Program-made: the position numbers and the translations under genes
Source: a virus
Length of the DNA: 21,760 nt
IMG/VR virus record: IMGVR_UViG_3300017971_003375
Direction: 5' to 3' (one strand)
The notes under the pieces: generated by a model
What the model was told of the DNA's origin: nothing
The model's database searches: none
What the model saw: the letters and a program-made list of their open reading frames with translations, nothing else
Part shown: positions 9,401 to 9,810 of the stretch, in pieces
Position numbering within the stretch: the first letter of the stretch is position 1
How the letters are laid out: each line of letters starts with the position of its first letter

Positions 9401-9810
9401 TGGTGGAGGCGGCGAGAATTGAACTCGCGTCCGCGATGCATTCACGATAGCATCTACGTGTGTAGGACATGTTTCGGCTCACTGGTTACGGCCAGCACCC
9501 TCGCGTGGGTACACATCCAAACCTTCCGGCTGTCTTTCCAGCAGTCTGTCCCTACGCCTACCTCCCGCCGGGCAACGGGCAGTTGATGTCTTTCCACCGG
9601 TCAGTCAGGTTTTTGAACCTCAAGGGATGGTCTGACAGCCTACCCTCTTTTGGCCCGGTTGCTTACGCAGCCTTCGCCACGGGGGCGAAGGCACCGGGGA
9701 AGTTGATAACCTTGGCGATTATCAGAACGGTCAGCTTTTTACGAGGCCAACTGACCAACCTCGACACGCAGCTAACGCTTCAAACAACACGTCGAAACCA
9801 TGTCGCCCCC
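9401..9810 (-). ncRNA. ssrA: tmRNA (ssrA), complete, 410 nt. Predicted tag reading frame GCC AAG GUU AUC AAC UUC CCC GGU GCC UUC GCC CCC GUG GCG AAG GCU GCG UAA gives (A)AKVINFPGAFAPVAKAA
   Basis: 5' end GGGGGCGACAUGGUUUCGACGUG matches E. coli GGGGCUGAUUCUGGAUUCGACGGG. PK1 GUUGGCCUCGUAAAAAGC is identical to E. coli. 3' end GGACGCGAGUUCAAUUCUCGCCGCCUCCACCA matches E. coli GGACGCGGGUUCAACUCCCGCCAGCUCCACCA. Acceptor stem GGGGGCG/CGCCUCC has a G3:U70 alanine identity pair. The tag frame ends in AA-UAA. Confidence 0.85.

Follow-up and report, generated by a model that had tools for sequence, protein, structure and literature searches.

Three questions are raised by the locus at positions 9401-9810 of IMG/VR virus record IMGVR_UViG_3300017971_003375, which resembles a gene for transfer-messenger RNA (tmRNA, ssrA): whether it encodes a working molecule, to which kind of genome it belongs, and whether an unusual lysine near the end of its tag peptide serves a purpose. 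The whole stretch of 21,760 nt, called here the window, was analysed. An original prediction, made from the letters alone, had proposed that a complete tmRNA gene is present and that the replacement of the usual ALAA ending by AKAA could alter recognition of the tag by ClpXP and SspB. Our analysis indicates that the locus quite probably encodes a functional one-piece tmRNA of a large phage (less likely of another large mobile element) whose host uses Shine-Dalgarno sequences. The lysine, for its part, is most simply explained by the pairing of its codon within helix 5, at a position where the tmRNA family tolerates almost any pair of residues provided that the helix is preserved.

ARAGORN predicts a single tmRNA, a one-piece gene of 410 nt on the minus strand at 9401-9810. 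The Rfam tmRNA model RF00023 matches at the same coordinates from end to end (model positions 1-374) with 145.7 bits (E = 1.1e-57), the gathering score being 47 bits. Both programs agree with the original prediction of a complete gene and add the strand, which had not been stated; all features described below lie on this strand. A two-piece (permuted) tmRNA was considered and rejected, as RF04321 reached 22 bits against a threshold of 47 bits and the ARAGORN call is that of a standard, non-permuted gene. The tRNA-like domain (TLD) comprises a 7-bp acceptor stem with G3.U70, a T-arm, a discriminator A and CCA, and has no anticodon arm. The 5' strand of the acceptor stem, GGGGGCG (tmRNA 1-7, which includes G3), is found at 9804..9810, its 3' strand CGCCUCC with the discriminator A and the encoded CCA at 9401..9411, and the T-arm GCGAG-UUCAAUU-CUCGC at 9412..9428. 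Pseudoknot 1 (PK1; tmRNA 48-82; 9729..9763) is formed by stem 1 (CGAGG/CCUCG) and stem 2 (GGUCAG/CUGACC) and sits just 5' of the resume codon, as the tmRNA class requires.

The frame-setting sequence AUAAUC (9717..9722), which aligns with AAUAAuU of the Rfam model and AAUAGUC of E. coli, lies directly 5' of the resume codon, so that GCC comes straight after GAUAAUC. From this codon ARAGORN reads a frame of 17 codons and a UAA stop that encodes AKVINFPGAFAPVAKAA (9663..9716; gene positions 95-148). Direct reading of the codons (GCC AAG GUU AUC AAC UUC CCC GGU GCC UUC GCC CCC GUG GCG AAG GCU GCG UAA, the stop at 9663-9665) gave the same result. The frame, the GCC resume codon, the stop and the AKAA ending with its retained terminal Ala-Ala are thus those proposed beforehand. 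Helix 5 (tmRNA 114-156; 9655..9697 in the Rfam alignment) encloses the stop codon together with the last part of the tag frame; it consists of an outer helix, CCGGU/ACCGG, and an inner 9-bp hairpin, GCCUUCGCC-CCCGU-GGCGAAGGC, which is wholly inside the tag frame. The pseudoknot-rich region equivalent to PK2-PK4 occupies about 190 nt (9466..9654), with a low posterior probability in the Rfam alignment. Judged from these parts, the tmRNA gene is complete and apparently working.

G3.U70, the T-arm and the encoded CCA, all noted beforehand, could be read from the minus-strand sequence, and the 18-nt PK1 string GUUGGCCUCGUAAAAAGC is identical to that of the E. coli K-12 ssrA by alignment. The ends are indeed similar to those of E. 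coli, but the description of this likeness as almost base for base was generous (about 16/22 at the 5' end and 28/33 at the 3' end). As the tRNA-like ends and the PK1 core are conserved in all tmRNAs, their likeness to E. coli is uninformative on the host.

The 3' end of ssrA is the integration site of many phages, and the locus might accordingly be the ssrA-derived half of an attP site, or an ssrA gene at a junction between prophage and host. In line with this, the tag ANDDNYAPVALAA was present in 13 of the 20 viral contigs listed by a tag scan and is the same as that of Stenotrophomonas genomes; we read these 13 as host ssrA genes at prophage ends. An attP fragment would hold the 3' portion of the gene only. 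Here the match runs the full length, including the 5' half, PK1 and the tag, as the original prediction had argued, and the whole gene is found in the middle of the contig, flanked to either side by genes of the element type, an arrangement of neighbours that recurs in four relatives. This explanation can be regarded as refuted.

The relatives provide the evidence for a tmRNA family. Metagenomes were scanned with a pattern made of TTCGAC, a gap of 90-120 nt and codons for APVAxAA followed by a stop, and ARAGORN was run on the matches. Four syntenic relatives, L077, L076, L027 and L005 (the same contig as L009 and L016), carry a homologous tmRNA followed by the same acyl carrier protein (ACP) gene. 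L076 carries in addition homologues of both genes upstream of the window tmRNA, and a Ro60-like gene downstream. The tags are AKVITFPGAKAPVALAA in L077, AKVINFPGAMAPVAIAA in L076, ANGNTIAFPGAQAPVALAA in L027 and (G)NVLQFSGAVAPVAMAA in L005, with K/L, M/I, Q/L and V/M, respectively, at residues -8/-3, where the window tag has F/K. It should be noted that ARAGORN missed the tmRNA of L005 and mis-framed the tag of L027. The former was taken from Rfam (86.8 bits) and the frame of the latter from the alignment; CCA is not encoded in either of these two genes. Overall identity to the window tmRNA is 71% for L077, 68.5% for L076 and 65% for L027, and about 60% for the best cellular tmRNAs among the matches listed. 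The motif F-[PS]-G-A-x-A-P-V-A-x-A-A is kept in all five tags with synonymous differences between them (GCC/GCU/GCA, AUC/AUU, CCC/CCA and GUG/GUA); the tag frame is therefore also under constraint at the protein level.

In line with the original prediction, the gene does not duplicate any known chromosomal ssrA: the looser motif F-x-G-A-x-A-P-V-A-x-A-A-stop had no match in 185,579 species genomes. A nucleotide search with the tmRNA against 50,697 phage records and a search of IMG/VR for the exact pattern of its 3' end likewise returned no match. One apparent host gene, the ssrA of an Acidimicrobiia metagenome-assembled genome (L215, the same as L024; tag AKVVHFPSRSAFAPVAQAA), was rejected as such. 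This phage-like tmRNA lies on a contig of 4.2 kb with ORFans and a DUF5661 gene, which is probably mis-binned phage DNA. Related endings occur in tmRNA tags on other IMG/VR contigs of 50-110 kb (L131, L136, L129 and L130), which read GETVKFPSAAPVALAA, AKPVLSFPAPVALAA, ANDNVGKPLGFAPVALAA and AEEAFFSGNLFSDSAPVALAA. Phage tmRNAs with F-P...APVA-x-AA tags may thus form a larger group.

Covariation was assessed on an alignment of the five tmRNAs with the structure given by RNAalifold; controls in which pairing partners were slid by 1-3 columns, and 500 shuffles, were run alongside. In the RNAalifold structure 89.9% of the cells were paired, whereas the slid controls gave 37-41%, and 42 pairs showed double changes compared to 6-12 in these controls. 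None of the 500 shuffles equalled the observed values. The seven pairs of the acceptor stem (helix 1) are kept in 5/5 sequences (100% paired), pairs 4 and 6 being double-changed, and G3.U70 is invariant. PK1 stem 1 (helix 4) is 100% paired with two double changes, and stem 2, as read from the alignment, pairs in each relative through differing sequences. The T-arm (helix 14; 5 pairs, 3 with double changes) and the outer part of helix 5 (helix 6; one pair with double changes) are both 100% paired. In the inner part of helix 5 (helix 7), 97.8% of cells are paired and 5 of the 9 pairs are double-changed; helix 2 also shows compensatory changes. Regarding the PK2-PK4 region, whose pseudoknots lie outside what the structure tools used can model, part of RNAalifold helices 9-13 covary within the family, and the PK2 part shares 89% identity with L027.

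As far as an alignment can tell, this pattern is that of a working RNA under selection and not of a relic. It also bears on the proposal that the molecule is mainly a decoy or inhibitor that competes for SmpB or alanyl-tRNA synthetase (AlaRS), as has been proposed for the TLD-only molecule of mycobacteriophage DS6A, or a decaying relic. That SmpB was not found in the window would suit a decoy. Moreover, a TLD-like molecule can inhibit tmRNA (PMC4131195), and a phage tmRNA has been suggested to counteract host tagging (PMC5648845). However, the mRNA-like part is no less well preserved than the tRNA-like part, and the tag residues, the stop codon, the resume context, PK1 and helix 5, none of which a pure decoy would need, are all conserved or covarying. 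We therefore consider a decoy or relic very improbable and retain a functional tmRNA as the preferred explanation.

Helix 5 also accounts for the lysine. The Lys codon AAG at tag residue -3 (9672..9674) and the Phe codon UUC at residue -8 (9687..9689) were found by direct reading to pair with each other. The pairs are U122-A138, U123-A137 and C124-G136, flanked by C121-G139, within an inner hairpin that reads GCC-UUC-GCC / CCCGU / G-GCG-AAG-GC. In the alignment, columns 128-130 (the -8 codons) pair with columns 142-144 (the -3 codons). Opposite each other stand AAG and UUG in L077, AUG and AUU in L076, GUG and AUG in L005 (with one G.U pair) and CAG and UUG in L027 (with one C.U mismatch), so that between the window and L077 three adjacent base pairs are flipped. 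The flanking GCN alanine codons pair mutually around a Pro-Val loop, so that A-x-A-P-V-A-x'-A amounts to a coding palindrome. AAG (Lys) in the window is thus the complement of UUC (Phe) in a covarying helix. The -3 residue looks unconstrained at the protein level and constrained at the RNA level, and the simplest account of the alignment would be that it is protein-neutral in the family and carried along by the upkeep of the helix.

The lysine may, on the other hand, have been selected for an effect on the protein, such as weaker or redirected recognition by ClpXP or an adaptor, which would give rescue without the usual degradation or hand the product to another protease. The observation behind this idea is real. 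The residue at -3 in the 81 distinct APVAxAA tags among the matches listed (a sample of at least that size, gathered with -3 unconstrained) is L in 28, V in 27, M in 11, I in 8, Q in 5, A in 1 and K in 1, the lysine of the window being unique. The tag ends in K-A-A, keeping Ala-Ala and lacking the canonical ClpX-type (L/V)AA degron. Recognition by ClpX depends critically, in E. coli, on the final LAA of the tag, and changes there such as DAS minimise ClpX binding (PMC9382460). The absence of the FxGAxAPVAxAA motif from all species genomes scanned would also leave room for a private degron. By contrast, lysine is not a trait of the family, the closest relatives having L, I, L and M at this position, and its codon is fully accounted for as the complement of the Phe codon in the covarying 9-bp helix. 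An effect of the lysine on proteolysis is possible, and is not indicated by the comparative data; that it was placed to redirect ClpXP or SspB found no computed support and is weakened by the relatives and by the pairing. Selection for a protein effect thus appears rather unlikely, and while the observation made in the original prediction stands, its interpretation was over-extended.

We now turn to the genome in which this tmRNA is found. The window is a whole MEGAHIT metagenomic contig (ENA ERZ27256798 k141_2227757), and pieces of its sequence recur in two other samples. All plausible genes are on the minus strand and the GC skew is steadily negative. Among the 19 main open reading frames (ORFs), six have a Pfam match above the curated cut-off and a seventh is a weak LPD25 match; about two thirds have no Pfam match, and ORFans make up most of the window. 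Some window ORFs match PHROGs, in phage-only families of unknown function. Relatives are present on IMG/VR contigs of 58.7, 131 and 340 kb. Those of a vault-like protein of the window lie on contigs of up to 340 kb, and one of a 625-aa ORF was found on the 58.7-kb contig L005, which shares at least six genes with the window and shows weak terminase/helicase-like matches. In a megablast of the whole window against phage and plasmid records, the tRNA was the sole match. The phage origin assumed beforehand is likely and is read from the relatives, the window itself having no structural gene; the contig is likely a fragment of a large phage.

Could the contig instead be a fragment of a bacterial chromosome and the tmRNA the organism's own ssrA? 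The gene is complete and structurally sound, the window holds no phage structural gene, and Ro60-like, ACP, NAMPT and Nudix genes occur in bacteria too. Several results, however, argue for a non-chromosomal context. No housekeeping gene was found among the window ORFs in Pfam scans, nor was smpB, which is close to ssrA at 38 of 120 cellular loci; most main ORFs are without a Pfam match, as described above; and relatives are found on IMG/VR viral contigs and huge-phage genomes. The pair formed by NAMPT and an NMNAT/Nudix gene matches phage families (PHROG 448, 7e-160). The tag motif is absent from the species genomes, and the best cellular tmRNA in the sample reaches about 60% identity, compared to 65-71% within the family. 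A chromosomal origin is accordingly improbable, and we keep to a phage tmRNA.

Regarding the host, the use of Shine-Dalgarno sequences is predicted from the strong AAGGAGG ribosome-binding sites at many genes. These same sites led us to reject a Bacteroidota host, which the vault-like gene shared with a 735-kb phage genome and a TTTG box in a promoter-like motif (see below) had suggested. An alphaproteobacterial host, suggested by the 94% identity of the window tRNA to that of Caulobacter phages and by APVAQAA tags, is unlikely. The window tmRNA is one-piece, whereas Lacusarx, the one alphaproteobacterial phage tmRNA examined, and the cellular alphaproteobacterial tmRNAs in the sample are two-piece; this is a weak argument. 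The general APVAxAA pattern occurs, among the matches listed, in Stenotrophomonas, Chloroflexota, Planctomycetota, Coxiellaceae, Bacillota, Cyanobacteria and alphaproteobacteria, none of them close in sequence. The best likeness outside the family, again among the matches listed, is to Coxiellaceae-type (gammaproteobacterial) tmRNAs and is confined to the tRNA-like domain.

The gene that follows the tmRNA in the window and in its relatives encodes an acyl carrier protein of 83 aa (9004..9255 by gene call; Pfam PP-binding, 8.3e-12; PHROG 5934). It lies 145 nt downstream of the window tmRNA, and tblastn shows its homologue adjoining the tmRNA in all four relatives. A consensus scan detected no terminator-like site between the tmRNA and the ACP gene, and a terminator-like hairpin with a U-run past the latter (8990..9018). 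From this arrangement the two would be co-transcribed.

Further downstream lies a gene for a vault-like protein of 929 aa with MVP shoulder and repeat domains (6146-8935; Pfam 2e-21; PDB vault about 2e-17 over residues 517-851). Proteins 40% identical to it are encoded by two genomes of uncultured phages, LR756500 of 462 kb and LR756501 of 735 kb; MVP homologues in phages and bacteria have been noted in preprints (10.1101/2023.11.10.566534, 10.1101/872010). A Ro60-like TROVE/vWA protein is encoded at 2838-4619 (TROVE 1.9e-19; Ro60-type vWA 1.3e-06; PHROG 850, 'RNA-binding protein'). It matches the TROVE proteins 9l5y/9kop of the PDB (6e-08), and in L076 its gene is syntenic with the tmRNA and tRNA-Met. 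Rfam detected no Y RNA in the window. The idea that the Ro60-like and vault-like genes form a conserved module was discarded, since no Ro60-like gene lies near the vault-like gene at the six other loci that have it, and L076 carries a Ro60-like gene but no vault-like one.

On the other side of the tmRNA, NAMPT and an adjacent 324-aa Nudix protein are encoded at 18859-21217 (NAMPT, PHROG 448, 7e-160; Pfam). The N-terminal part of the Nudix protein weakly matches cytidyltransferase PHROG families, and the two form an NAD-salvage pair that is annotated in Lacusarx too, there with a bifunctional NMN adenylyltransferase/nudix hydrolase. Lying in tandem at 13485-17289, three genes (474, 270 and 537 aa) contain the direct repeats D2, D3 and D7 at spacings of 1421 and 770 nt. 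Going by their shared N-terminal sequence, they are a small paralogous family; the 537-aa member has a weak ParB-like match.

The window also carries a tRNA-Met(CAU) gene at 5724-5800 (ARAGORN, Rfam), with a conserved leader before it (5997-6092) and a strong terminator after it (5685-5724). Its U1.U72 mismatch is kept in L005 and L076. It is 94.4% identical to the tRNA-Met of the Caulobacter phages CcrColossus and CcrPW, and 85.5% identical to an E. coli tRNA-Met found at four places per genome, a count that equals the number of initiator tRNA genes in this species. By its sequence it looks like an initiator tRNA.

Three further stretches of the window, in which no gene was called, are conserved in the relatives. 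Element U, about 305 nt (10183-10487), is 85-90% identical to positions 81-392 of L077, including an identical block of 67 nt. This conservation exceeds that of the adjacent tmRNA (71%) and ACP (66%, protein) in the same comparison. Element U, a candidate structured RNA, begins right past a TTCTTTGAA motif and has a terminator-like hairpin at its end (10184-10202). Element T, about 185 nt of non-coding sequence directly upstream of the tmRNA (9823-10007), shares 78% identity with L005:17312-17490, a segment 2.2 kb in front of the L005 tmRNA, and is not present in L077. Its ends pair (GCGGGAG/CUCCCGC) with few compensatory changes. Element 2 (5318-5634; about 315 nt), located after the tRNA terminator and before the ORF at 4823-5299, is 77% identical to L005:18137-18443 with near-perfect blocks, while the proteins shared by the window and L005 are about 50% identical. 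The sequences of its terminal stem differ in the two copies and pair in both. Element 2 is not merely a leader, because the 158-aa ORF and a Ro60-like gene are both missing from the vicinity of the L005 copy. Even at a cut-off of E <= 10 on short slices, the three elements matched no Rfam family, Y RNA and RNase P RNA included. Profiles of the conserved elements run with nhmmer gave no further copies in the loci compared, and a viral scan with Element 2 returned the L005 contig as its sole match.

An intergenic motif, (G)TTC(T/A)TTGA(A/T/C)A(A/T)T, precedes every RNA candidate and several genes. It is found at 17341, 11609, 10495, 10181, 10016 (a variant), 6089, 5638 and 2761, as well as at L005:19702, L076:1730 and L027:1990, and TTCTTTGAC with at most one mismatch occurs 18 times where 5.1 are expected. 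In L005, L076 and L027 the motif directly adjoins the mature tmRNA 5' end (TCTTTGAAAATT followed at once by GGGCG). The motif is probably a lineage-specific promoter with a start about 6 nt past TTTGA. Element T, which lies behind the variant at 10016, could possibly be the start of the transcript that carries the tmRNA.

Several observations weigh against a functional phage tmRNA. SmpB was not found by tblastn of the window and 18 phage loci. Genes for capsid, portal, terminase and tail are all missing from the window, its origin being drawn from the relatives and the IMG/VR classification, and a large plasmid, although less likely, could be the carrier: plasmids with similar translation genes have been noted (PMC7162821). 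Assignment of a host failed, so that the tag is not comparable with the host's own. The PK2-PK4 region aligns badly to the Rfam model, and the motif copy directly upstream of the window tmRNA is degenerate, unlike those of L005, L076 and L027.

The functional tmRNA that we favour would act as follows, by analogy with established tmRNA biology. A phage promoter would drive its transcription, possibly together with Element T upstream and the ACP gene downstream. Transcription may start before Element T because the motif copy directly upstream of the tmRNA is degenerate, and may extend over the ACP gene, given that no terminator-like hairpin is met until past its end. Host enzymes would trim the transcript, and the host AlaRS would charge it with alanine by way of G3.U70 and A73. 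SmpB, supplied by the host or encoded elsewhere on the element, would deliver it with EF-Tu to ribosomes stalled on broken mRNAs. Translation would resume at the GCC past AUAAUC, add AKVINFPGAFAPVAKAA and stop at UAA, which would free the ribosome and leave a product bearing a C-terminal Ala-Ala degron. The tmRNA would act during infection, and its benefit to the phage is probably an extra capacity for ribosome rescue when host or defence nucleases cut mRNAs. This hypothesis fits with the neighbouring initiator-like tRNA, Ro60-like RNA-binding protein and NAD-salvage genes.

A bolder and doubtful proposal is that F-[PS]-G-A-x-A-P-V-A-x-A-A is a private degradation tag whose free positions are coupled by the RNA hairpin. 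Proteins tagged with the lysine form might then escape the host ClpXP, with rescue but no degradation, or be taken up by another adaptor or protease, possibly encoded by the phage. The tmRNA might, under the same proposal, be one member of an array of non-coding RNAs (the three RNA candidates, the initiator-like tRNA and the tmRNA) that share the lineage-specific promoter and act on translation during infection.

Whatever the fate of that proposal, the tmRNA family offers a clean case of one set of nucleotides that is under two constraints, that of a peptide tag and that of an RNA helix. The coupled change of two tag residues means that an odd lysine need not be adaptive, and counsels caution when function is assigned to tag variants. 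Little analysis has been devoted to the phage tmRNAs catalogued so far, and the surrounding island of tmRNA, initiator-like tRNA, Ro60-like gene, three RNA candidates and promoter-like motif is a candidate toolkit for sustaining translation in infected cells.

Compared to known systems, the window tmRNA resembles in its setting those of huge phages, in which tmRNA and SmpB have been reported (PMC7162821). Here again the tmRNA is one-piece, found by ARAGORN, and carried by a very large phage-like genome rich in tRNA and translation genes (PMC7162821), and the window shares its vault-like gene with LR756500 and LR756501. No tmRNA was found within about 17-20 kb of the vault-like gene in these two genomes. 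Some huge phages carry SmpB, whereas none was found in the window, and neither the F-[PS]-G-A-x tag motif nor the tmRNA-ACP synteny is described for them (PMC7162821). Other phage tmRNAs are those of Bacillus phage G and the Bxz1 group of mycobacteriophages (PMC4131195) and that of Sphingobium phage Lacusarx (PMC5648845), each a complete ssrA on a lytic phage with many tRNAs. Lacusarx, whose tmRNA we confirmed to be of the two-piece alphaproteobacterial type with the tag ANDNDVVTAEVRLAA, resembles the window further in having NAMPT and NMNAT/Nudix about 16 kb, and the RNA-repair gene RtcB about 4 kb, from the tmRNA. The window tmRNA nevertheless shows no detectable nucleotide similarity to those of the Bxz1 group, phage G and Lacusarx, and differs from the last in being one-piece. 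The TLD-only molecule of DS6A (PMC4131195) and ssrA-derived attP sites are also ssrA-derived sequences on phages; these are partial (the TLD or the 3' end), whereas the window gene is full length with a conserved tag frame.

With the E. coli SsrA (tag ANDENYALAA) the window tmRNA shares G3.U70, the T-arm, the 18-nt PK1 core, UA-UC before GCN, a helix 5 around the stop codon and the terminal Ala-Ala. It differs from it in a tag of 17 residues instead of 10 without an AANDENY-type SspB site, in the Lys that replaces Leu at -3, in a 9-bp hairpin wholly inside the frame, and in a middle part that cannot be aligned. Cellular tags of the APVAxAA type, such as those of Stenotrophomonas (ANDDNYAPVALAA), Anaerolineae (ANTMANNWAPVAVAA), Caldilineae (AKTTGKAFNFGFANAAPVAMAA) and the two-piece alphaproteobacterial ANDNYAPVA[LVQ]AA, share the APVA-x-AA frame at the C-terminus. 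They are without F-[PS]-G-A-x, come from tmRNAs of at most about 60% identity, and have L, V, M, I, Q or A at -3, with no K among the matches listed. Taken together, these comparisons indicate that phage tmRNAs as such are already known, and that the novelty of this locus is the tmRNA family, its tag motif, the synteny of tmRNA and ACP genes, and the way in which helix 5 couples two of the tag residues.

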